NCBI GenBank assembly: GCA_964521735.1
Contig: CAZFTO010000004.1
Coordinates: forward strand, 8,566-72,565
From: an uncultured Oscillospiraceae bacterium
Lineage (GTDB): Bacteria; Bacillota; Clostridia; Christensenellales; CAG-314
DNA: 64,000 nucleotides
Reading direction: 5' to 3'
Position numbers and translations under genes: made by a program. Below are positions 15,872-57,646 of this stretch, piece after piece; within the stretch, counting starts at the first letter, position 1; each line of letters begins with the position of its first letter. The notes under the pieces were generated by a model. That model saw only the letters and a list, made by a program, of their open reading frames with translations. It was not told where the DNA came from and did not search any database.

Positions 15872-17512
15872 ATGATAATTGACGCACTCAACGAAAAATT
15901 CCCGCAAATGCCCGATTTGCGCGTGCGGGATATAAAGGTGGATAAGGACTCACGCAAAATTTATTGTGCCGTGAGCTATCCCGATGCGCCAAACTTATCG
16001 TCCGAAGTGGTTTCTCAGATAAAAACGGTTGTCGTTTCAACTTTCCCCAAAGGCTATCGCTACGATGTGCGTGTCGTCAACGACCGCTTCAACGAAAAAA
16101 GCTTTGCTTCGTTGCTTTTGGACGTTGTCAAAAAAAGATATCCGCTTTTTGCAAACCTAAAAAGCGATTGCTTGACGGTAAAACTAACGGGTCGTTGCAT
16201 CGTGGCAACTTTTGGTGTTAGCGAAACCACGTTACTAAACATGAAGTCGGCCAACTTTTTGTCGGAAATGAGCAAGTTTTTTGCATCGTATACTTGCTAC
16301 GACGTGCAAATTTTGGCAAACGTTGTGCAATCGGCGCACGAAGCAGATATTGCTGCGCAGGAACGATTGGTTCAACTGGCCATCAACAAAGAATTGCTAA
16401 AACCGCAACGCTATTTCAACGTTTTCGACGTGCAAAAGTGCATTGGCAAGGAAATTCCCACAAAGCCAATGTACGTTTCGGACGTGCGTTCGGCAATGGA
16501 AAACTGCGTTTTGTGTGGGAGAATTTCCGAAAAACAAATTCGCGACGTAAAAAACAATCCATCGTTGAAACTTTGCAAGTTCAACTTGACGGACGATAGC
16601 GGTGCAACCATTCCGTGTGTTACCTTCGTGCGGTTGCAAATTGACGATTTCGAAACATTGAAGCAAACGGTTGCCGACAAAACGGATGCGGAAATAATGA
16701 CAATGAGCCGCACCCGCCGTCTTTCCAACGAAAAGAAACTTAAGCTTTTTGAATTTTTGTATAACGGGCAAGAAGTTTTGTTGCGCGGAAAGGTTGCTTA
16801 TAGCGATTTTTCGCAGCGTTTGGAACTGCACTGGTACGATTTGAACAAGTGCCGCATTCAGCCGCTAAGTTCACAGCCTGTTTTCAAAAGTCAAACGCCG
16901 CAGCACTACGTGCTAGTCAGCCCAACCAAGCTAACAGAATATCGTCAAATGTCTTTTGCGCAGCTAGAAGAAAAGCCTTCCATGCTAAGCGGCAAGGATT
17001 GTGTCGTGCTGTATGCAAACACTACCGGCTATTCCGTCACGAAAGATAAAATCTACAATTTGTGCGGTGTAAAACTTACCAACGGACATCTAAGCGAAAA
17101 GTTTTCCACCTTCGTTTCGCCGGAAATTTCCCTAACCGACCAACAACTGAGCACTGCCGGCGCCACCGTTCGTTCGCTTTCCGGCAGTCCAACTTTGACG
17201 GAAATAATAGGCGATTTGTATAAGTTCGTGGGCAATGCCACTTTGGTGGGTAACGAAATTCCGAAATTGTTGGAACTGCTTAACTACTATGCTGCGCCGT
17301 TGGGCTATTCTTTCGAAAACCAAACTATGGCCTCGGCCGATTTGCTTTCGGCCCTGTTCGATGCAAGCGATTGCGACACAAAACCCAACTGCTTTGTGCT
17401 GGCCGATGTTGCCAAAGCCTTGAAGATGGATTGCAAACTGTCCGAAAGTGCCGAAGATCTTGCCGTTGCCGTTGCTACGTTTGCTTCACGCTTGGTTCAA
17501 CGCGCTCGCTAG
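15872..17512 (+). CDS. PolC-like N-terminal/OB-fold protein with a degenerate DnaQ-like exonuclease domain; no PHP or polymerase domains
   Basis: It occupies the ispG-[polC]-rimP slot. The segment IGKEIPTKPMYVSDV...CVLCGRISEKQIRDVKNNPSLKLCKFNLTDDSGATIPCVTFVR...EVLLRGKV parallels the PolC OB domain. The C-terminal part aligns to the PolC exonuclease, but DVETTG is replaced by YANTTG, HNASFD by GNEIPKL, and the H-x4-D histidine is missing. Confidence 0.6.
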   Translation: MIIDALNEKFPQMPDLRVRDIKVDKDSRKIYCAVSYPDAPNLSSEVVSQIKTVVVSTFPKGYRYDVRVVNDRFNEKSFASLLLDVVKKRYPLFANLKSDCLTVKLTGRCIVATFGVSETTLLNMKSANFLSEMSKFFASYTCYDVQILANVVQSAHEADIAAQERLVQLAINKELLKPQRYFNVFDVQKCIGKEIPTKPMYVSDVRSAMENCVLCGRISEKQIRDVKNNPSLKLCKFNLTDDSGATIPCVTFVRLQIDDFETLKQTVADKTDAEIMTMSRTRRLSNEKKLKLFEFLYNGQEVLLRGKVAYSDFSQRLELHWYDLNKCRIQPLSSQPVFKSQTPQHYVLVSPTKLTEYRQMSFAQLEEKPSMLSGKDCVVLYANTTGYSVTKDKIYNLCGVKLTNGHLSEKFSTFVSPEISLTDQQLSTAGATVRSLSGSPTLTEIIGDLYKFVGNATLVGNEIPKLLELLNYYAAPLGYSFENQTMASADLLSALFDASDCDTKPNCFVLADVAKALKMDCKLSESAEDLAVAVATFASRLVQRAR

Positions 17513-17707: not shown

Positions 17708-17787
17708 CACTCACCGCACGTCCTTCGCCTAGTTGAATTATTTTTGCTACGGTGAGAGTGGAGTTTTTTCTCCACTCTCAATTTTTT
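17708..17787 (+). promoter_or_regulatory. leader attenuator with alternative antiterminator and terminator structures ahead of rimP
   Basis: The terminator is tgagagtggag-tttttt-ctccactctca followed by attttttt (17753-17787). The upstream cactcaccg (17708-17716) can pair with cggtgagagtg (17750-17760), which sequesters the 5' arm of the terminator. Confidence 0.55.
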
Positions 17788-19363: not shown

Positions 19364-19630
19364 GTGACTAAGCAAAAGAAAATCCCCGAAAGAATGTGTG
19401 TTGCTTGCCGACAAATGAAGCCGAAAGATCAGTTGTTTAGGCTGGTTGTTTCGAACGGTGCAACGGTGGATCTAACAGGGAAAATAAACGGCAGAGGTGT
19501 GTATCTTTGCAAGTGCAAGGATTGCATTGTCAAAGCAAGCAAAAACAAAAATTTTGCCAAGATGCACGGCTTTGCTTTGAGTGAAGAATTGATTTTGAAG
19601 TTGGAGAATCTACTTGAACAGCAAGATTGA
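19364..19630 (+). CDS. ylxR: YlxR-family (DUF448) RNA-binding protein
   Basis: GTG start. PERMCVACRQMKPKDQLFR and GRGVYLC, in the position after nusA. Confidence 0.88.
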   Translation: MTKQKKIPERMCVACRQMKPKDQLFRLVVSNGATVDLTGKINGRGVYLCKCKDCIVKASKNKNFAKMHGFALSEELILKLENLLEQQD

Positions 19631-19892
19631 AACGTATATCGGCTTTGCAATCAAAAAGGGTTCGGTGGTGTTCGGTTGCGACAACATTTCTCGTTATCGA
19701 AAAAAAGTCTATTTGTTGTTGGCAACCAAAACGCTATCGCCAAATTCGTTCAAGGTGCTAAACGCCTGTTCGGAAAAATTTTGTTGCAAAGTAAAAGTAA
19801 TCGAAGACTACGACTTTTTGTCGAAAAAAAATTGCAAGGCATTGGCTATTTGCGATAAGTCCTTGGCGGACGCAATATTAAGCGTGGAGTAA
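19614..19892 (+). CDS. ylxQ: L7Ae/L30e-family protein YlxQ
   Basis: TTG start. IGFAIKKGSVVFG, located between ylxR and infB. Confidence 0.75.
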   Translation: MNSKIETYIGFAIKKGSVVFGCDNISRYRKKVYLLLATKTLSPNSFKVLNACSEKFCCKVKVIEDYDFLSKKNCKALAICDKSLADAILSVE

Positions 19893-35948: not shown

Positions 35949-36145
35949 AATTAGAAGAAAAAATTGCAAAACTAGACCAACTTGCAACGCAAATAGAAGC
36001 AAAAGACGTTGCGCTAGAAGATGCATTGAATATTTTTGATCAAAGCGTAAAATTGGCTTCGGAATGTTTGCAAACGCTTAACGATTGCAACGGAAAATTG
36101 ACAGTATTATCAGAAGAAGTGAAGAGGTTGACAGATGAAGAATAA
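35945..36145 (+). CDS. xseB: exodeoxyribonuclease VII small subunit
   Basis: 66 aa: LEDALNIFDQSVKLASECLQTL. ATGA overlap with xseA. Confidence 0.9.
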   Translation: MKLEEKIAKLDQLATQIEAKDVALEDALNIFDQSVKLASECLQTLNDCNGKLTVLSEEVKRLTDEE

Positions 36146-36947
36146 AATCACGGCAGAATTTATCGACGAATTGCTAAGAAAACACCTTCCAAAACTTTCC
36201 GACAAGGTGGAACAAGCGGTGGAATACAGTTTGTTTAGCGGTGGAAAACGTTTTCGTCCGTTGTTGCTGTTGTGCACGGCACAAGCAGTTAGCAAACGCA
36301 AAAGTTCCAATGCAGAACTTTTGGCGGTAGCTTTGGAATACGTGCACACCTATTCCCTTATTCACGACGACCTTCCTGCAATGGATAACGACGATGTGCG
36401 CCGTGGCGTTCGCACTTGCCACCTGGCGTTTGGCGAGGCAGCGGCCATTTTGGCAGGCGACGCATTACTTAACCTTGCCATCGAAGTGGCGCTATCGGGC
36501 AATCTTTCGGATAAGCACTATCAAAAGGCCTGTGCCTATTTGTTTAGATGCAGTGGTTCCAACGGCATGTTGTTTGGCCAAAGTTTGGATTTGTTCTCGG
36601 CCACGGCATCCTTCGACGATGCAAAACAAGTTGCCGTGCACAAAACAGGCGACCTTATTCGCGCAGCAATTGTTTGCGGCGCTTTGTGTGGACACGCTTC
36701 GGAAGAAGAAGTGGCCGTGTTTGAAGAAATTGCCACAAACTTCGGCATTGCATATCAAGTGGTGGATGATCTTTTGGATGCAGAAAAGTGCGAAAAATCT
36801 TTCTTGGACGTTATGTCGGAAAGAGAGTGCAAACAGTTTGCTGCCGAACTAACCAACAAAGTTTTTGCCCTTTGCGACAGTTTGCCTCAATACGATTTGA
36901 CCTTTATCAAACAATATGCACAAAAGAATTTGGAAAGAAATTTCTAG
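36135..36947 (+). CDS. ispA: (2E,6E)-farnesyl diphosphate synthase
   Basis: First DDxxD motif (LIHDDLPAMDNDDVRRG), second motif (YQVVDDLLD), and GKRFRP. Confidence 0.93.
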   Translation: MKNKITAEFIDELLRKHLPKLSDKVEQAVEYSLFSGGKRFRPLLLLCTAQAVSKRKSSNAELLAVALEYVHTYSLIHDDLPAMDNDDVRRGVRTCHLAFGEAAAILAGDALLNLAIEVALSGNLSDKHYQKACAYLFRCSGSNGMLFGQSLDLFSATASFDDAKQVAVHKTGDLIRAAIVCGALCGHASEEEVAVFEEIATNFGIAYQVVDDLLDAEKCEKSFLDVMSERECKQFAAELTNKVFALCDSLPQYDLTFIKQYAQKNLERNF

Positions 36948-36973
36948 TATTTTGCATAAATATTCAAAAATAT

Positions 36974-37002
36974 TTGCAAATATTGCATAAACGTGGTATA
37001 AT
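36974..37002 (+). promoter_or_regulatory. sigma-A promoter directly upstream of the large ncRNA
   Basis: TTGCAA, a 17 nt spacer, then TGgTATAAT, starting 27 nt after the ispA stop. Confidence 0.55.
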
Positions 37003-37009
37003 TGCATCA

Positions 37010-37737
37010 AGTAAGTTTTTTGCTTACCAACAACTAAATAAAATTCCGGTGGTGCAGTATTCTAGTCAACAGTTGACTTATTGAGGGCGGGGGTAAAAGA
37101 CCGTCGAAGAGCATATCGATGAAGTTTCTTGTGCTGGCTTTCGTTGCCCAAACGGGGGCTTGTGCTGGAAGTTAAGATTGGTGGGTAAGACGTAATGGCA
37201 TACGTTATAGCCCCATCATTCGTGGAGACTCTACAGGGTGTTTGCAGAGCACATCTTTGCAAGTACTCTCTGAGATTAAACCTGCTATGCGGTGAATTCG
37301 CTGTGTACAGAGTAGCTTGTTTTGAGTGAAATTTTGGGAGTAATGAACGGCGTGCGCTTGTTGGCCGACAACGAACGTCGACTGCTTTACGAAATGAATT
37401 TTGCAAAAGAAACTAAAGTTTGACGACTGTTGCAAAGGAAATCTTCTAGACTGTATTTCAGGCATATCGGAGATTATAGTACGGACTAAGTGGCGATTCA
37501 GTTAAACGCGCGGTGACGTCGTTTACGCGAAATGAAAAGGAAACTGCTTCTTCGGCGACGGGAAGTTTTCGTGTGGGAAATCCTACTGAACCTATGCCGT
37601 AAGGTTTATCCGATAAGTCACCACCTGTTTTTGCTTTTTCGCCAGCCTCGCCTTGCGCGAGGTTGGCTGTTAAGGGCACCTCGTTTGGCGTGCTCTAATT
37701 GGAGGCGCCGACTTTTGTCGGAGCCGTTATTTTTTAG
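37010..37737 (+). ncRNA. ole: large structured non-coding RNA, most likely OLE (ornate, large, extremophilic) RNA
   Basis: The gap between ispA and the next CDS is 830 nt and has no credible ORF. It has its own promoter and a 3' intrinsic terminator. Several strong local helices are visible, for example 37641-37667 (11 bp) and 37064-37078. The context xseA-xseB-ispA-[RNA]-membrane protein-argR-recN equals the published ole/oapA neighbourhood. The ends are approximate (+/- 30 nt). Confidence 0.7.
37704..37736 (+). terminator. intrinsic terminator at the 3' end of the ncRNA
   Basis: ggcgccgac-tttt-gtcggagcc forms a 9 bp stem with one mismatch, followed by gttatttttt. Confidence 0.6.
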
Positions 37738-37780
37738 TTAAAACACGTTGCAATGCAACGAAAATTTTTTTAGGAGAAAT

Positions 37781-38458
37781 ATGAAAAACGATTCTGTTCC
37801 ACGAAGTACCATACCCGAAGCAAATGATTGTGTGTTGGAAGATTCCGATGCTCGACCAAGCAGCCAAAGCAATTCCGATGCCTCTGTAGAGGTTGTCGAA
37901 AAGGCTAAAAAGGAAAAACCCGTCAAAAAGAAAAAGCGCAACATGTGGCCGTTAAAGGCCTTGATCATTTCTTTCACGCTGTCTTTTGTGGTGAATGCCG
38001 GTTCCGAATTGGTTTTGGAAGATTCTCAAATTTGGATTGCCGTTTTGCTAACTTTGTTGATATTGGCAATAGGCGTGGTGTTCGATATGATCGGCACTGC
38101 AACAACTTCGTGCGACGTTCAGCCCTTTTTGGCAATGGCGTCACGCAAAGTTAAGGGGGCAAAAACAGCCGTCAAGTTGGCAAAAAACCGTGACGTAGTT
38201 TCCTCGGTGTGTTGCGATATCGTTGGCGATATTTGTGGCATCGTTTCCGGTGTGTGCGCCGCATCGATTGTTGTGCAAGTCGCTCAGCTCGTTGAAGGCG
38301 CCGTGTGGAATTTCTTGCTATCCGTATTTATCTATGCAGTTATTTCCACTGCTACAATCACGCTAAAAGCGGCGTGCAAAAAGCTTGCCGTAAACAAAGC
38401 GGTGGGCATTGTTTTTGGTGTAGCAAAGTTTTTGAGCATATTTTCAAGAGAAAAATAG
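37781..38458 (+). CDS. oapA: multi-pass membrane protein, OapA-like (OLE-associated protein A) by position
   Basis: The ATG follows an AGGAG RBS. A hydrophilic N-terminus of about 55 aa carries KAKKEKPVKKKKRN. Four or five hydrophobic helices follow, with duplicated FDMIGTA and DIVGDICG motifs. The gene lies immediately 3' of the ncRNA. Confidence 0.55.
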   Translation: MKNDSVPRSTIPEANDCVLEDSDARPSSQSNSDASVEVVEKAKKEKPVKKKKRNMWPLKALIISFTLSFVVNAGSELVLEDSQIWIAVLLTLLILAIGVVFDMIGTATTSCDVQPFLAMASRKVKGAKTAVKLAKNRDVVSSVCCDIVGDICGIVSGVCAASIVVQVAQLVEGAVWNFLLSVFIYAVISTATITLKAACKKLAVNKAVGIVFGVAKFLSIFSREK

Positions 38459-38507
38459 TTAGTGGCTTGTTGCGGCAGGTGCTCGTCGCACAAGCGAAGG
38501 AGTGCCT

Positions 38508-38951
38508 ATGTCTCGTTCTGCAAGACAATCAAAAATTTTGGACGTAATTGGCCAAAACAGCATCGAAACGCAAGACGAACTTGTTGCCGCGCTAAGGGAA
38601 GACGGATTCGACGTCACCCAGGCAACAGTATCGCGCGACGTTAAAGAATTGGGACTTATAAAAATTCAGGATGCCAACGGCCGCTATCGCTATGCAACGC
38701 AACAAAAAACGGCAAAACTTTCCGGCAAGTTGCTAACGGTGCTACGTGAAGCCGTTATTTCCGTTGTAACGGCGGAAAACCTTATTGTCGTTCACACCAT
38801 AGCCAACGGTGCGCACGCCGTATCCGAAGCGGTGCAACAACTTTCGCTCAACGTTTTGGGCGTGCTGGCCGATGGTGACACAGTGCTTATTATTTGTGCT
38901 TCCACAACGGAAGCAAACTTGGCTGCGCAAAAGATAAACCAACTAATTTAA
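38508..38951 (+). CDS. argR: arginine repressor
   Basis: RQSKILDVIGQNSIETQDELVAALREDGFDVTQATVSRDVKELGL and GTIAGDDT-like LADGDTVLII. The ATG at 38508 sits 7 nt after AAGGAG. Confidence 0.93.
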   Translation: MSRSARQSKILDVIGQNSIETQDELVAALREDGFDVTQATVSRDVKELGLIKIQDANGRYRYATQQKTAKLSGKLLTVLREAVISVVTAENLIVVHTIANGAHAVSEAVQQLSLNVLGVLADGDTVLIICASTTEANLAAQKINQLI

Positions 38952-38955
38952 CAGT

Positions 38956-40665
38956 ATGATCAAAAAAATTGAAATTCGCAACATTGCGCTGATAGACCAA
39001 ATAGAAATTGATTTTTCCGACGGCTTGACGGTTCTTTCCGGCGAAACCGGCAGCGGCAAATCCATAATAATCGATTCGCTTGCATTCGTTTTGGGAGATA
39101 GGGCCGATAAAACCCTTATCAAGTACGGCGAGGACGAAGCATCCGTCTCCGCACTTTTTGAGGTGGACGAAACTTGTGCCGTGTTGGATAAGCTAGAAGA
39201 ATACGGCTACGGCAGAGATACGGAAATTTTGGTCAGTCGCAAAATGTCCGTTGCCGGCAAAAACGAAATTCGCATACAGGGCAAAACGGCTACGCTTGCT
39301 ATTTTGAAGGACGTTTGCGCCGAATTGGTGGATATTTTTGGGCAAGGTCAACACTTGGCGTTGCTCAACGAAAAGAAGCAACTGGAAGTTTTGGATAGTT
39401 TTTGCAATTTTGGCGGTGCAGACGAAAAGCTCAAAACGCAACTAGCTCCGCAATTGTTGCAGCTTAACAAACAACTTAAATCGTTTGGCGGAACGGATGC
39501 CGAGCGCGAACGTTTAGCGGACGTTTTGAAATATCAAATTGACGAAATTACCCGCGCGGAACTGGACGAAGCGGAAGAAGAAGAACTGCTTGCAAAGCAT
39601 AAGCGTTTTGTCAATGCCGAAAAAATTGCTCAGGCGTTGTCTCAATCCATAGAAGCGTTGGATGGCACGATGGGCGCCATAGGTCAAATTTCCACGGCTA
39701 AAAGCGCGTTGCGCGGCATTTCTTCGGTGGAAGAAACAGCCGATGGTTTGCACCAAAGGCTAGATTCCGTCGGGCTTGAACTTTCCGACGTGGCTGCCAC
39801 ATTAACCGACGTTTTGGACGGTTTGGATTTTAGTCCATACGAAGCCGATCGCATCGAAAACCGCTTGGAAAACATCAAAACCATAAAGCGCAAGTACGGC
39901 GGAACAATTGCCGATGCATTGCGGTTTTTAAGCGATGCGCAAACCAAATATGACGATTTGGTCAACGCTTCGGATAAAATTGAAAAACTAAACAAGCAAA
40001 AGAATGAAGTTTTGCAGGAAATGTATCAACTTTCTTTGCAAAAATCCCAAGAGCGCCAACGCGCGGCCGATCAGCTTGCGCAACGCATAATGAGAGAACT
40101 TGCCGATTTGGGCATGAAGGGCACCAAATTTCAAGTGCAATTCAACCAAACGCCCACTTTGGAAGAGTATTCCCATTCCCCATCGGCAAACGGCTTCGAC
40201 GAAGTGGTGTTCTTAATGTCGGCAAACGTCGGCGAACCGCTAAAACCGCTTTCTAAAGTTATTTCCGGTGGCGAAATGTCTCGCTTTATGCTAGCAGTTA
40301 AAAACATCACGGCGCAAGCGGAAAAAATTCCCACTATGGTGTTTGACGAAATTGATACCGGCATTTCTGGCAATATGGCGCAAATGGTGGCGGTAAAGTT
40401 GGCCAACGTGTCGGCGGATAGAGAAAACGGCTTCCAGTGCATTGTTATAACGCACTTGCCGCAAATATGCGCAATGAGCGACAACGCTCTCTACATCGAA
40501 AAGCAACAACAAAACGGCAAAACGCTCACGCGCGTTGTTCCCTTGACGGATCGCAACAGTCGCGCGGAAGAAGTTGCCCGTCTTATGGGCGGCGTGGGAC
40601 AATCGGCCTTGGTGGGCGCAAACGAACTGCTGGATTGGTCGCAAAACTACAAGGCATCTCGCTAG
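38956..40665 (+). CDS. recN: DNA repair protein RecN
   Basis: LSGETGSGKSIIIDSL (Walker A), the signature SGGEMSRFMLA, and MVFDEIDTGISG. Confidence 0.96.
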   Translation: MIKKIEIRNIALIDQIEIDFSDGLTVLSGETGSGKSIIIDSLAFVLGDRADKTLIKYGEDEASVSALFEVDETCAVLDKLEEYGYGRDTEILVSRKMSVAGKNEIRIQGKTATLAILKDVCAELVDIFGQGQHLALLNEKKQLEVLDSFCNFGGADEKLKTQLAPQLLQLNKQLKSFGGTDAERERLADVLKYQIDEITRAELDEAEEEELLAKHKRFVNAEKIAQALSQSIEALDGTMGAIGQISTAKSALRGISSVEETADGLHQRLDSVGLELSDVAATLTDVLDGLDFSPYEADRIENRLENIKTIKRKYGGTIADALRFLSDAQTKYDDLVNASDKIEKLNKQKNEVLQEMYQLSLQKSQERQRAADQLAQRIMRELADLGMKGTKFQVQFNQTPTLEEYSHSPSANGFDEVVFLMSANVGEPLKPLSKVISGGEMSRFMLAVKNITAQAEKIPTMVFDEIDTGISGNMAQMVAVKLANVSADRENGFQCIVITHLPQICAMSDNALYIEKQQQNGKTLTRVVPLTDRNSRAEEVARLMGGVGQSALVGANELLDWSQNYKASR

Positions 40666-41416: not shown

Positions 41417-42784
41417 ATGACAAATTGTGACGTATTGATTATCGGTGCGGCAACGTCCGGTTGCTATTTGGCAAAACTTTTGGCGCAAAAGGGCGCTAGT
41501 GTTATCGTTGCCGACAGGCTAACGGAACAAACGCTTGGCAACAGGTTGGATATTTTCCACATGACGCGCCGCGAAATGAAAAAATACGATTTACCCTGTC
41601 CGCAAAAGGGCGACGGCATCTACGAATTTGAATTTGCCGATAACTACACCTATTCGCCGCACGGCAACTACCCTAAGTATAACTACGACGAAGTGGTTGG
41701 CATGCACATGGCCAAATACATTGCTCTTATGAAAAGTCAAGCGGAACAAGCCGGCGCAAGCTTTTTGTTCGGGCATGATTTTCAAAAGTTTATTTTCCAA
41801 GACGGAAAAATTGTGGGCGCCACCTTCGCCGCGGATGGCCAAACGCAGGATATTTTTGCCAAAGTGGTTGTGGATTGTTCCGGCGCGGATGCAAAACCCA
41901 GAACGTCCCTGCCTGATGGTTTTTGGGTGGATAACTTCCCGCTGGGCGGCAACGACAAATTCTACGTGATTTTGCGTTACGTAAAACTAAAAAATCCCAA
42001 AGATTTTGTTGATGCTTCGGGCAAATTTGTTTGTCGCGGATGGACGTACTACAAGGCATGGTTGGCACCTTGTTCTTCCGACGGTTCCGATGCCATTTTG
42101 GGCATAGGCGCTTGCACAAGCTACGATCACGGCGAAGAAGTGTTTGCCACGTTGCAACAAAACGTTGCCTTGCCAGAACACGAAGTGGTGCGCTACGAAA
42201 GGGGCACAACGCCTTATTCTCGCCCGCCCTATTCTTTTGTTGCCGATAACTTTGTTGTTTGCGGTGACGCTGGTGCACTAACAAAACCCAACAACGGCGA
42301 AGGCGTGACCAGTAGCATGGAACAAATGCTTATCGTTGCAGACGTTGTAGGTGAAGCGTTGCGTAGTGGCGACACCTCTGCAAATGCGCTGTGGCCCATA
42401 AACGTGCGCTACAATTTGGTGCAAGGTGCGGATTTTGCTTCCACACGCGCATTGTTCACAAAGGCCGTTCGTGCCAAAATAGAAGAGTGGGAATATTTGT
42501 TCAAAAAGTCCGTCATTTTTGACGACAGGTTTTTCGACGGAGGAAAAACCATGCCGCCCTCCACAACGCCTGTTCGGGATGCTTTGCACCTTGTGTTTGG
42601 TATTTTGGGCGGAGTGCTTAGTGGCAAAGTTAGTTGCAAAACAATCGGCGCATTTTCCGACGGTCTAAAATTGGGTAAAAAACTTAAAAAACACTATTTG
42701 CGTTTTCCAACAAGCCCCGATGGTTTTGATGCATGGAAGAAAAAAGCCGATAAACTTTGGAACAAAGTTGGCAAAATGCAGTAG
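41417..42784 (+). CDS. FAD-dependent oxidoreductase, geranylgeranyl-reductase-like family
   Basis: The dinucleotide fold DVLIIGAATSGCYLAKLLAQKGASVIVADR and CGDAGALTKPNNGEGV, which corresponds to the GDAAG..P..GEG motif of the GGR/FixC family. GGAGG RBS. Confidence 0.7.
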   Translation: MTNCDVLIIGAATSGCYLAKLLAQKGASVIVADRLTEQTLGNRLDIFHMTRREMKKYDLPCPQKGDGIYEFEFADNYTYSPHGNYPKYNYDEVVGMHMAKYIALMKSQAEQAGASFLFGHDFQKFIFQDGKIVGATFAADGQTQDIFAKVVVDCSGADAKPRTSLPDGFWVDNFPLGGNDKFYVILRYVKLKNPKDFVDASGKFVCRGWTYYKAWLAPCSSDGSDAILGIGACTSYDHGEEVFATLQQNVALPEHEVVRYERGTTPYSRPPYSFVADNFVVCGDAGALTKPNNGEGVTSSMEQMLIVADVVGEALRSGDTSANALWPINVRYNLVQGADFASTRALFTKAVRAKIEEWEYLFKKSVIFDDRFFDGGKTMPPSTTPVRDALHLVFGILGGVLSGKVSCKTIGAFSDGLKLGKKLKKHYLRFPTSPDGFDAWKKKADKLWNKVGKMQ

Positions 42785-54875: not shown

Positions 54876-55607
54876 TTGAATAAATTTGTAACATTTCTAG
54901 TCAGCATAGCAAAAGTTTTGGTGCGTCCGTTTTTTCCCGTTAAGTACTACGGCGAGCGCAAACTGCCAATGAAAAAGACTTTGCTTGTTGGCAATCATAT
55001 TTCCGGCTGGGATCCGCTTGTTTTCAGCATGTGGTGCAAAACTTGGGTTTCATTCGTATATAAGGCCGAATTCCGCAAGTCTGCATTTTTGCGCTGGGTG
55101 TTCGACGGCCTTAATTTTGTTCCCGTCAAGCGTGGCGAAGTGGATTTGTTTGCGACAAAATCCATAATGCGTTTGCTCCACGAAGACAGGATTGTTGGCA
55201 TTTTCCCCGAAGGAACACGCAACCCCGACGTGGATTGTCTGCAAAATTTTCACACTGGCGCGGCATTGTTTGCAATAAAAACAAAGTCGCCCATTCGTGC
55301 ATTCTACACCTGGGAAAAAGCAAAAGCTTTTCGCAAAAACTACATAATTGTGGGCGACGAATTCACTTTGGAAGAATTCTACGACAAACCCGTCACCAAG
55401 GAAACGTTGGTGCAAGCCACGGCTGTTATCAAACAACACGTGGACGATTTGCGTGTGCAACTCAACGGAATTTTGCAGGAAAAAGGCATTAAGCGTCGTC
55501 CTCGCACAAGAAAAGAAACGGAAAAAATCAAACGCTACAACGAAAAACAAAAGACTTTGGCTAAAGAACTTGCCAAACAACAATCGTCCAAGGAGGATTG
55601 CGAGTGA
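54876..55607 (+). CDS. plsC: 1-acyl-sn-glycerol-3-phosphate acyltransferase
   Basis: TTG start after AGAGG. GNHISGWDP (HxxxxD) and IFPEGTR. Confidence 0.88.
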   Translation: MNKFVTFLVSIAKVLVRPFFPVKYYGERKLPMKKTLLVGNHISGWDPLVFSMWCKTWVSFVYKAEFRKSAFLRWVFDGLNFVPVKRGEVDLFATKSIMRLLHEDRIVGIFPEGTRNPDVDCLQNFHTGAALFAIKTKSPIRAFYTWEKAKAFRKNYIIVGDEFTLEEFYDKPVTKETLVQATAVIKQHVDDLRVQLNGILQEKGIKRRPRTRKETEKIKRYNEKQKTLAKELAKQQSSKEDCE

Positions 55608-57646
55608 TAAAGGTTTGGTTGCCAAAAGAATACGGCTTTTGTTCCGGCGTGTCTTCTGCAATCGAAAAAGCCTTGTCTCTAAATCGCAAGGCTTTTTGTC
55701 TTGGAAGATTGGTGCATAACGGCACTGTGGTGGAACAGCTAAATAAGCAAGGTGTTGTCACTGTTTCCAGCGTGGAAGAAGTTCCCGATGGGGAAACGCT
55801 AATCATCCGCGCGCACGGTGCTCCACCGGAAGTGTTTAGTCGCGCTGCCGAAAAGGGGCTGACGGTGGTGGACGCAACCTGTCCGTACGTCAAGGCCATT
55901 CAGCAAAAGGCAAAAAAATATCACGATAACGGCTACCTGATTGTTTTGGTTGGAGAAAAGGATCATCCGGAAATTATGGGCATAAACGGTTGGTGCAACA
56001 ATCAAGCAATAGTGTTCGACGGCAAAAGTGAAATAAGCTTGCCTAAGTGCGAAAAAGCGTTGGTGATGTTCCAAACAACTTTCGACACAAGTTGTTTCGA
56101 AAAAAGTCTGCAAAATATTCGTTCGAATTGCGTCAAAACGCTTGAAATATTCAACACAATTTGTTATACTACTATACAAAGGCAGTACTATGCCCAAATG
56201 CTATCCAAACGGTGCGATCTTGCAATCGTGGTTGGGGATAAAGGAAGTTCCAACACGCGCCGGTTGCTGGAAATCACTTCGCAAAACTGCAAGTCGGTTT
56301 TGTGCGATGGTAGCGACGTGCAGAGTATTGACTTTAATAATTACGGAAACGTATGCTTGGTTTCCGGTGCGTCAACTCCGACCGAGTTGATCAAGGGGGT
56401 TTTGGAAAGAATGGTTGAAATTGCAAAAGACGCCGTTGCAGTAGAAACGGCAGTATCCGAGGAAATCGTTAAGGCTAACGAAGTTGTGGCAACGGAAGTT
56501 GTTTCTGAGGATTCACACACGACAGAAGAAAAGGTTATGGACAAAGACGAGGCTATGCTTGCAGCAGCTGTTTCCAGCATGCGCGAAGGTCGCTACAAAG
56601 TTGGCCACGAAGTTAAATGCCACGTTGTGCAAGTAAGCGCAGACGGCGTTTACGTTCGTATTCCCGGATGGAAGACGGAAGCGTTCATTCCCAACGAAGA
56701 ATTGGTTTTGGAAGGCGACTATGCCGAATTCAAGGCCGGTTTGAAAGAAGGCGCAAACCTTGTTTGCTCCATCATTTCTACGGAAAGCGGAATCACACTT
56801 TCCAGAAAAGCTATTGAAGAAAAGTATAAGGACGACAAACTTGTTGACGGCATCAAGGAAGGTCAAGAATTTTCCGTCGTCATGACCAGAGTTGGCAAAA
56901 GCTGCCTAACCGGTCGTTTGGGAAGCTACACGGTAGTTGTTCATGCTTCTCAAATCAAAATTGGTTTTGTTAAGAACCTTGAACAATATGTTGGCAAAAC
57001 TTTGCGCCTTGTTTCCTCGGCAGACAAAGTTGACGACAAGAAACACGTTATCTATGCAAGCCAAAAAACCATTTTGCTTGCAGAAAAGAAAGCAAAAGAA
57101 GACGAATTCTGGAACAACATTGAAGAAGCAGAAATCGTTGAAGGCAAAGTTCTTCGCTTTGCAAGCTTCGGTGCTTTCGTAGACGTTCGTGGTTTCGATT
57201 GCTTGGCACACACGACAGATCTTTCTTGGGATCGCGTAAATGCTCCTGCAGACGTTTTGGAAATCGGTCAAACCTACGAATTCGTAGTGTTGGCATTGGA
57301 TAGAGAACACAACAGAGTATCCTTGGGCTACAAACAACTTCAACCCAAACCTTGGGAAGTTGCCGAAGAAAAGTTTCCCGTAGGCACTGTTGTTAAGGGC
57401 AAAGTTGCAAGACTTATGCCTTACGGCGCGTTTATCGAATTGGATAAGCACATCGACGGTTTGCTTCACGTTTCCAACTATTCTTGGGATTGGATCGACG
57501 ATATCACCAAGGTTTTGAAAGTTGGTGACGAAGTGGAAGTTGAAGTGTTGGAATTCGACGCTGAACACAAACGCATCACTCTTTCCAGAAAAGCTTTGCT
57601 CGAAAAACCCGAAGAAGTTGTAACCAGACCGAGCAACAACGACTAA
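55604..57646 (+). CDS. ispH: fusion protein: 4-hydroxy-3-methylbut-2-enyl diphosphate reductase (IspH/LytB) plus ribosomal protein S1-like repeats
   Basis: The N-terminal half is IspH (YGFCSGV, IIRAHGAPPEV, DATCPYV, GEKDHPE, SSNTRRL). The C-terminal half has four S1/OB repeats (for example GKVLRFASFGAFVDV and GKVARLMPYGAFIEL). GTG at 55604 sits 7 nt after AGGAGG; TTG at 55598 is also in frame. Confidence 0.9.
   Translation: MIKVWLPKEYGFCSGVSSAIEKALSLNRKAFCLGRLVHNGTVVEQLNKQGVVTVSSVEEVPDGETLIIRAHGAPPEVFSRAAEKGLTVVDATCPYVKAIQQKAKKYHDNGYLIVLVGEKDHPEIMGINGWCNNQAIVFDGKSEISLPKCEKALVMFQTTFDTSCFEKSLQNIRSNCVKTLEIFNTICYTTIQRQYYAQMLSKRCDLAIVVGDKGSSNTRRLLEITSQNCKSVLCDGSDVQSIDFNNYGNVCLVSGASTPTELIKGVLERMVEIAKDAVAVETAVSEEIVKANEVVATEVVSEDSHTTEEKVMDKDEAMLAAAVSSMREGRYKVGHEVKCHVVQVSADGVYVRIPGWKTEAFIPNEELVLEGDYAEFKAGLKEGANLVCSIISTESGITLSRKAIEEKYKDDKLVDGIKEGQEFSVVMTRVGKSCLTGRLGSYTVVVHASQIKIGFVKNLEQYVGKTLRLVSSADKVDDKKHVIYASQKTILLAEKKAKEDEFWNNIEEAEIVEGKVLRFASFGAFVDVRGFDCLAHTTDLSWDRVNAPADVLEIGQTYEFVVLALDREHNRVSLGYKQLQPKPWEVAEEKFPVGTVVKGKVARLMPYGAFIELDKHIDGLLHVSNYSWDWIDDITKVLKVGDEVEVEVLEFDAEHKRITLSRKALLEKPEEVVTRPSNND

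Follow-up and report, generated by a model that had tools for sequence, protein, structure and literature searches.

Our analysis identified a gene for the ornate, large, extremophilic (OLE) RNA, which is a non-coding RNA of Bacillota, in a 64,000-nucleotide (nt) stretch of contig CAZFTO010000004.1 from an uncultured Oscillospiraceae bacterium, hereafter called the window. We put the probability at about 95% that positions 37033 to 37640 of its forward (+) strand constitute an OLE RNA gene of the full-length type, lying at the usual place between ispA, which encodes farnesyl diphosphate synthase, and oapA, which encodes the membrane protein partner of this RNA.

When the entire window was scanned with Rfam 15 at the gathering threshold, the interval from 37033 to 37640 matched family RF01071 (OLE) with 447.9 bits, compared to a gathering score of 50, and an E value of 3.1e-128. 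The alignment is untruncated, running from model position 1 to 616 of 616 with 13 consensus positions deleted. An earlier reading of the same DNA from its letters alone, here called the original prediction, had proposed an OLE-class RNA at this place and a search with the Rfam OLE model as the way to check it, and the search returned this strong, end-to-end match. OLE is the sole Rfam match in the 64 kb; the same scan of positions 1 to 64000 detected no tRNAs, riboswitches, or ribosomal-protein leaders, despite the presence of rpsB, rpsO, infB, and pnp. With 608 nt, the OLE core is of typical size. The suspicion that this copy exceeds the customary length of about 600 nt thus holds for the predicted transcription unit of about 727 nt but not for the OLE match itself, which is ordinary.

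The fold is preserved along with the sequence. Mapping the RF01071 structure onto the window sequence retained 154 of the 159 consensus base pairs, 141 of them canonical. We furthermore counted pairs in an alignment of 31 sequences (A4), consisting of the window OLE and 30 OLE genes of related loci, using the RF01071 structure together with the closing helix P1 (160 pairs). Here, 89.2% of the paired cells can pair, compared with 41 to 47% when the partners are slid by 1 to 3 columns, and compensatory, two-sided changes occur in 106 of the 160 pairs. The covariation score of this alignment (0.453, versus 0.193 in shuffles) was reached by 0 of 500 shuffles. The test for covariation among relatives that the original prediction had proposed thus came out clearly in favor of a conserved RNA structure. 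Three near-invariant blocks, GGUGGUGCAGUAUUCUAGUCA, AUCGAUGAAG, and GGAAAUCCUACUG, match the RF01071 consensus exactly and form conserved columns in the alignment. We found no evidence contrary to the OLE identity.

These data also bear on the notion of one or several small protein-coding genes in the interval. While open reading frames (ORFs) of 44 to 114 amino acids (aa) are present on both strands, the interval agrees with a structured-RNA model from end to end, its substitutions follow base pairing and not codon constraints, and indels among relatives are not multiples of three, as seen, for example, in hairpin H1 of the 3′ tail (see below). Since OLE is, moreover, treated as non-coding by Rfam and in the literature, we consider a coding function of the interval extremely improbable.

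Individual elements of the RNA can be placed on the published architecture. The 5′ strand of closing helix P1 has the sequence GGUGGUG (37048 to 37054, +) and pairs with CACCACC at 37619 to 37625, with which it forms an inverted repeat; the helix is 100% paired in the 31 relatives, with UA-to-CG changes in one pair. Of the local stems singled out by the original prediction, the one at 37189 to 37208 proved to be a consensus OLE hairpin, which is 100% paired in the 31 relatives and shows compensatory changes in 4 of 5 pairs. The stem at 37064 to 37078 is a genuine palindrome but lies outside the Rfam consensus structure, in a stretch that is unpaired there. The direct repeat CTTGTGCTGG, noted at 37128 and 37159, is indeed present, and its two copies (37128 to 37137 and 37159 to 37168) form the opposite, mutually paired arms of one long G-U-rich hairpin (37125 to 37171, +), which was delineated by structure mapping and is 95% paired in relatives. 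By our own reading of the literature numbering, this hairpin probably corresponds to P5/P5.1. A complementarity between 37123 to 37134 and 37403 to 37414 was also considered; it shows no covariation in the 31-sequence alignment and was treated as chance.

Several elements correspond to sites of interactions known from the literature, in which OLE binds OapA at the membrane and has two further protein partners, OapB and OapC. The block AUCGAUGAAG at 37115 to 37124 (+), identical to the Rfam consensus and nearly invariant among the relatives, lies in the k-turn joining region, which is bound by OapC (YbxF) in Halalkalibacterium (Bacillus) halodurans (PMC9723947, PMC12286853). By analogy, we predict that 37115 to 37124 forms a k-turn strand of the OapC site type. 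The primary OapB site is P13, with its single-nucleotide bulge and GNRA tetraloop (PMC7936274); the window has a P13 hairpin at 37504 to 37524 (+) with a bulged C at 37509 and a GUGA tetraloop at 37513 to 37516. All 8 of its pairs show compensatory changes in relatives, and it is predicted to be a primary OapB site. A P14.1-type hairpin at 37546 to 37566 (+), with a GCGA tetraloop at 37555 to 37558, is of the type of the weak second OapB site. Finally, a GGCC palindrome at 37363 to 37366 (+), aligned to the consensus GGCC loop, is located in the loop of a P9.3-type hairpin. In the cryo-electron microscopy (cryo-EM) structure of the OLE RNA of Clostridium acetobutylicum, a kissing loop of this sequence joins two OLE molecules to a dimer (PMC12286853).

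Separately, the window contains a 92-aa ORF at 19614 to 19892 (+), located between ylxR and infB in the place of ylxQ. It is without a Pfam match and has a weak L7Ae-family NCBIfam match (E value of 3.6e-4; 20.6 bits versus a cutoff of 77). We mention it because the OLE partner OapC is a k-turn binder of the L7Ae family.

The best-studied relative is the OLE RNA of H. halodurans (RF01071; Puerta-Fernandez 2006; Wallace 2012, PMC3413148). The window copy belongs to the same RNA family over the full model, has the same oapA gene directly downstream and the same kind of proximal promoter, and conserves both the OapB site, with its P13 bulge and GNRA loop, and the k-turn strand. It differs in its host, an uncultured gut member of the Clostridia with 45% G+C content as opposed to an alkaliphilic Bacillus, and in a three-hairpin tail of about 95 nt with a terminator-like end between OLE and oapA. 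With the 577-nt OLE of C. acetobutylicum, known as a homodimer from cryo-EM (PMC12286853), it shares the GGCC palindrome, the k-turn region, and 5′ domain helices that can be aligned via the Rfam model; in comparison, the window copy measures 608 nt by the model, carries the 3′ tail in addition, and is known from sequence alone.

In gut metagenome-assembled genomes (MAGs), two reduced variants are common besides full-length OLE: variant 1 (TANB77), with short P7 to P9 and no OapB site, and variant 2 (RF39), which is without P7 and P8 (Fernando and Breaker 2024, PMC11332333). While the habitat is similar, namely that of uncultured gut Bacillota known from metagenomes, the window copy is unreduced: it spans all 616 model positions, has lost only 5 of the 159 pairs, and retains an intact P13 OapB site. 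The full model span and the intact P13 place it with the full-length type and not with a reduced variant.

The gene directly downstream of the RNA (37781 to 38458, +), assigned on the basis of homologues, adjacency to OLE, and hydropathy, encodes a 225-aa membrane protein. Its start codon, ATG at 37781, has an AGGAG 8 nt upstream. The protein has a variable hydrophilic N terminus, a KKKKR cluster at residues 49 to 53, and about four hydrophobic helices, placed by hydropathy at approximately residues 57 to 79, 86 to 104, 141 to 165, and 170 to 193. It has no Pfam or NCBIfam match at default thresholds. We found 657 homologues, and scanning one genome per species yielded 80 loci encoding OapA relatives. 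Rfam places OLE immediately 5′, on the same strand, in 17 of the 17 close loci with room for it, and a profile built from the Rfam-found OLEs, together with tblastn, extends the OLE-oapA pair to 77 of the 80 loci. Operationally, OapA is defined by this pairing, and the downstream membrane protein is thus OapA, in line with the partner named by the original prediction. The order ispA-OLE-oapA-argR(-recN) recurs in many of these loci, and the same OapA protein is found on metagenome contigs of runs SRR17221326 and SRR22923251. Within the family (alignment A1), a lysine-rich cluster, the motifs ASRKVKGAKTAV and DIVGDICG, and the approximately four hydrophobic helices are conserved, and ASRKVKGAKTAVKLAK is also kept.

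A relationship of OapA to the transmembrane domain of CNNM/MpfA proteins has been reported in the literature, and in our data it is visible but weak. Among the OapA family members, 19 of 21 match the CNNM domain (PF01595) at an E value of 0.1 or lower, the best at 1.8e-6; the window protein itself reaches an E value of 0.015 with 15.4 bits, under the cutoff of 28.4. Thus, the family gives weak, consistent matches to the domain of the MpfA/CorB/CNNM Mg2+ transporters, but, unlike these, OapA is without CBS or CorC domains. A sequence search of the Protein Data Bank (PDB) with the OapA profile returned nothing relevant. An AlphaFold2 model from the 21-sequence alignment is all helical over residues 56 to 222 and of low confidence (mean pLDDT of 60, pTM of 0.45). 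In a Foldseek search of the PDB, this low-confidence model gave nothing with an E value below 0.4, with the archaeal CorB (MtCorB) at rank 7 (E value of 1.1).

OLE and its partner lie in an interval of 833 nt between the ispA stop, ending at 36947, and the ATG at 37781, the bounds also given by the original prediction. The near-consensus sigma-A promoter it had read there, TTGCAA-17-TGgTATAAT with an extended -10 element (36974 to 37002, +), was recovered by a consensus scan, with 10 of 12 consensus matches plus the extended -10 TG. The elements TTTGCA and TGnTAyAAT, separated by 17 to 18 nt, are kept at the same place in the window and in the related loci L083 to L085 (95% identical) and the more distant L215, L088, and L003, and it is this retention among relatives with otherwise diverged flanks that makes the promoter credible. 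Promoter-like sites are found 5′ of OLE in most related loci. A dedicated OLE promoter is, furthermore, not new biology: the proximal OLE promoter of H. halodurans has already been shown to raise expression more than 100-fold (Wallace et al. 2012, PMC3413148). The original prediction had regarded such a promoter as a departure from the usual arrangement; the promoter itself is real and conserved, but it represents the norm.

The leader between the predicted start and the OLE model is about 24 nt long and contains, upstream of the Rfam model start, a hairpin (37011 to 37027, +; ΔG of -5.2 kcal/mol, z score of -1.3, not significant alone), followed by the conserved ACAACUAAAUAAAA. At this position, most close relatives have a hairpin too, although its sequence is unrelated, with the conserved ACAACUUAAUAAAA after it; such hairpins recur in L004, L009 to L013, L215, and L088, and the leader hairpin may be a 5′-end stabilizer. 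Upstream of the promoter, 8 nt 5′ of the -35 element, TGCATAAATATTCA (36953 to 36966) matches the degenerate ArgR-operator consensus exactly, with argR located downstream on the same strand. As a candidate ARG box it was rejected: matches with at most one mismatch number 2 in the 64 kb versus 1.67 expected, which is within chance, and the site is conserved in the nearest relatives only and not in L215, L088, and L003.

The sole unusual feature of the locus is its 3′ tail, which we read as a small clade-specific variation. The spacer from the end of the OLE model to the oapA start codon measures 140 nt, about 95 nt of which form three hairpins. The first, H1 (37641 to 37667, +), is the 11-bp stem that had been pointed out in the claim that the interval is full of local helices; that description was borne out, and H1 folds with a ΔG of -22.3 kcal/mol (z score of -5.1), with 0 of 200 shuffles folding as well. 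The tail can be compared across seven sequence versions of one narrow clade, consisting of the window and loci L083 to L085, L086, L215, L087, L210/L211, and L088, whose OapA proteins are 66 to 95% identical. All share the same spacer design (a U-rich linker, H1, H2, H3, and a U-rich tail), and H1, H2, and H3 are predicted in 7 of the 7 versions when each is folded alone. H1 is 96% paired, with compensatory changes in 4 of its 11 pairs. H2 (37673 to 37696, +) comprises 7 bp and, further inside, another 2 bp and is likewise predicted in each version; the sequence of its 3′ arm, UUUGGCGUGCUCU, hardly varies, and its pairing is kept, with one-sided changes only. The figure of 59% paired that the alignment count gives for H2 is an artifact, since the MAFFT alignment is out of register by one column there.

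H3 (37704 to 37735, +), identified by folding and conservation, is a terminator-like stem, GGCgCCGAC-UUUU-GUCGGaGCC, followed by GUUAUUUUUU. The stem (37704 to 37725) has 8 bp with one G-A mismatch, a ΔG of -15.6 kcal/mol, and a z score of -3.5. Including the mismatch, it is invariant in all seven versions, each of which has a U-rich tail. The element conforms to the pattern of an intrinsic terminator, a G+C-rich hairpin with a U-tract, although the U-tract is interrupted. The 3′ intrinsic terminator that the original prediction had located at 37704 to 37736 is thus present and conserved as a structure, and termination at this site is what we predict from it. A metagenome scan with the H3 pattern GGCGCCGACN{4,5}GTCGGAGCC returned, among the matches listed, G+C-rich chance occurrences, mostly from soil, and none near OLE motifs, and thus yielded no additional instance of the tail. 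Just 5′ of the oapA ribosome-binding site lies a perfect palindrome, CGTTGCAATGCAACG (37746 to 37760; ΔG of -6.7 kcal/mol, z score of -2.3). We considered it as an operator or second terminator and rejected both, since it occurs only in the window and in L083 to L085 and is absent from L086, L087, L088, and L210; it is probably unimportant.

Considering these elements together, we propose the following model for expression of the locus. The RNA would be transcribed from the dedicated promoter with a start at about 37009, and read-through from ispA could also contribute, because our scan found nothing terminator-like on the + strand between the ispA stop and the OLE promoter (36948 to 37002); read-through from upstream has been reported for H. 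halodurans. Most transcripts would end at H3 near 37735, yielding a primary transcript of about 727 nt, in which the leader hairpin and H1 to H3 would shield the two ends. As the + strand scan found no promoter-like site between 37003 and 38063, and hence none between the OLE promoter and oapA, oapA-argR-recN would be expressed by leaky read-through of the imperfect H3, with its mismatched stem and interrupted U-tract. The outcome would be a large excess of OLE RNA over OapA mRNA.

Several points weigh against our picture of the unit and its particle. The transcript ends are predictions from sequence, and the start at 37009 to 37010 is predicted from promoter spacing alone. The promoter scan, taken by itself, stays within chance (5 sites in 3 kb versus 3.7 ± 2.3 in shuffles), and H3 was found by a looser terminator scan but failed the strict one, which missed it because of the G-A mismatch. 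For a plain terminator, it is moreover unusual that H3 is invariant down to its mismatch. In H. halodurans, mature OLE runs as one band of about 600 nt, has its 5′ ends near P1, and is very stable, with a half-life of about 3 h (PMC3413148); given this size, the leader and tail of the window copy may be trimmed off. As for the make-up of the particle in this host, neither oapB nor oapC (ybxF) was found in the 64-kb window.

The distribution of the tail sets the frame for other interpretations. Among the 61 related loci in which both ends could be placed, the ole-oapA spacer has a median of 22 nt; it is at most 30 nt in 37 loci and longer than 110 nt in 4, and a hairpin with a U-run between ole and oapA is found in 5. 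The spacers of the slightly more distant loci L003, L089, and L216 are also long, and their sequences differ. Most related loci have no terminator here, and OLE stops 2 to 30 nt short of the oapA start codon, so that both are physically on one transcript there. This arrangement, together with the partial cotranscription with neighboring genes reported in H. halodurans (PMC3413148), speaks for OLE being mainly a long structured 5′ untranslated region of an oapA-argR-recN mRNA, with H3 non-terminating. We regard this as quite unlikely, considering that H3 is a stable, conserved stem with a U-tract and that the stable single OLE band of H. halodurans greatly exceeds the abundance expected of an mRNA (PMC3413148).

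The conservation within the tail instead raises the question of whether it is regulatory. A tentative scenario, to which we assign rather low odds, is that a narrow clade of gut Clostridia gained a three-hairpin module separating ole and oapA, which acts as a regulated attenuator or as a protein-binding extension and thereby sets the ratio of OLE to OapA. If true, this would be a "long-form" OLE unit, which is not described in the literature we searched. In its more specific form, the tail would be a conditional attenuator, in which a protein or ligand signal switches the pairing of H2 and H3 and regulates read-through into oapA-argR-recN. The lack of a promoter-like site of its own would make oapA dependent on passing H3, and the near invariance of the H2 3′ arm and the invariance of all of H3, including the G-A mismatch, while adjacent sequence drifts suggest sequence-specific recognition. 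As we read the sequence, the 5′ arm of H3 offers CGCC as another possible partner for GGCG of the H2 3′ arm, but this alternative pairing comprises just 4 to 5 bp, and every version folds into the same ground state of H1, H2, and H3. No Rfam family describes the tail: a permissive scan of 36940 to 37800 for a second RNA family in leader or tail gave sub-threshold noise only, with a best match to the tail of 17.9 bits versus a threshold of 114. As the evidence, furthermore, comes from seven versions in one narrow clade, we consider the attenuator doubtful.

Alternatively, the tail might be an added domain of the OLE particle, serving as a protein site or as a protector of the 3′ end, in which case the mature long-form OLE would measure about 700 nt. 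The covariation in H1 and the conserved structure would fit such a role, as would the start of the tail directly after the closing helix P1 and the flexibility of the OLE 3′ half, whose role is open (PMC12286853). Nevertheless, most OLE loci are without such a tail, as the median spacer indicates, the close relatives L003, L089, and L216 have different spacers, and H1 to H3 show no obvious GNRA loop or k-turn motif. An added particle domain is therefore unlikely, and we retain the reading of an ordinary full-length OLE followed by a terminator-like, clade-specific tail.

The surroundings of the locus agree with its assignment. The gene order asp23-nusB-folD-xseA-xseB-ispA-[RNA]-oapA-argR-recN was established from domain matches, which substantiated the order from xseA to recN given by the original prediction. 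The ispA gene (36135 to 36947 including the stop, +) matches PF00348 (E value of 4e-43) and NF045485 (E value of 1e-63); argR (38502 to 38951, +) matches PF01316, PF02863, and NF001680; and recN (38956 to 40665, +) matches TIGR00634 with 474 bits, above the cutoff. We take the H. halodurans neighborhood to be xseA-xseB-ispA upstream and argR-recN downstream of OLE and oapA, an order that our data confirm in related MAG loci only. Presumably, Bacillus has dxs and other genes between oapA and argR; such genes are absent in the window. The window as a whole is a conserved housekeeping stretch of Clostridia type, and the closest loci are Clostridia gut MAGs. It contains the isoprenoid genes uppS, dxr, ispG, ispA, and ispH and the sporulation genes spoIIIAA, spoIIIAE, spoIIIAG, spoIIIAH, and spoIVB. 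OLE has been reported to correlate with spore formers (PMC11332333), and the spoIIIA and spoIVB genes are in agreement with this link.

A number of further observations were made along the way. After recN, a gene at 41417 to 42784 (+) encodes a flavoprotein of the geranylgeranyl reductase family, which matches the archaeal-type DGGGPL reductase model with 125 bits, below the cutoff. It keeps its place after recN in L001, L083, L086, and L087 and adds an isoprenoid-lipid flavor to the OLE neighborhood. A 682-aa protein encoded at 55598 to 57646 (+) is a fusion of IspH/LytB (residues 7 to 272) to at least two S1 RNA-binding domains, one at residues 592 to 665. In the expected polC place, after ispG and before rimP-nusA, lies a 546-aa ORF (15872 to 17512, +), of which residues 366 to 535, approximately, alone match the 3′-5′ exonuclease part of PolC/DnaQ, while the first 360 match nothing; the remainder of PolC would not fit between this ORF and rimP at 17786. 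Among the related loci, the contigs of L001, L002, L086, L087, L089, and L211 end 170 to 410 nt upstream of oapA, inside or just after OLE. Likely, near-identical OLE genes in coresident species collapse assembly graphs, as rRNA genes do, and OLE loci may be underassembled in MAGs. Three relatives with a Clostridia-type OLE-oapA pair (P0015, P0056, and P0117) are MAGs named "Corallococcus sp." or "Candidatus Fimimonas" (NCBI taxid 2840648); the placement of that MAG genus under Myxococcaceae by NCBI looks like a taxonomy labeling error.

In conclusion, the locus holds a routine full-length member of an RNA class that is already known, and only its clade-specific 3′ module is novel. The window copy by itself adds little, as any Rfam annotation would flag OLE here and gut Clostridia MAGs are already covered by a survey with 2,822 OLE genes. 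According to the literature on H. halodurans and C. acetobutylicum, the OLE particle helps cells under alcohol and cold stress, at excess Mg2+, and on poor carbon sources. Being among the largest bacterial non-coding RNAs with unsolved chemistry, OLE makes each well-defined locus useful for comparison. The modest use of this one concerns the balance of RNA and protein, as a terminator-like module lies between ole and oapA where most genomes have 2 to 30 nt. If this module terminates transcription, ole and oapA would be partly uncoupled in this clade.

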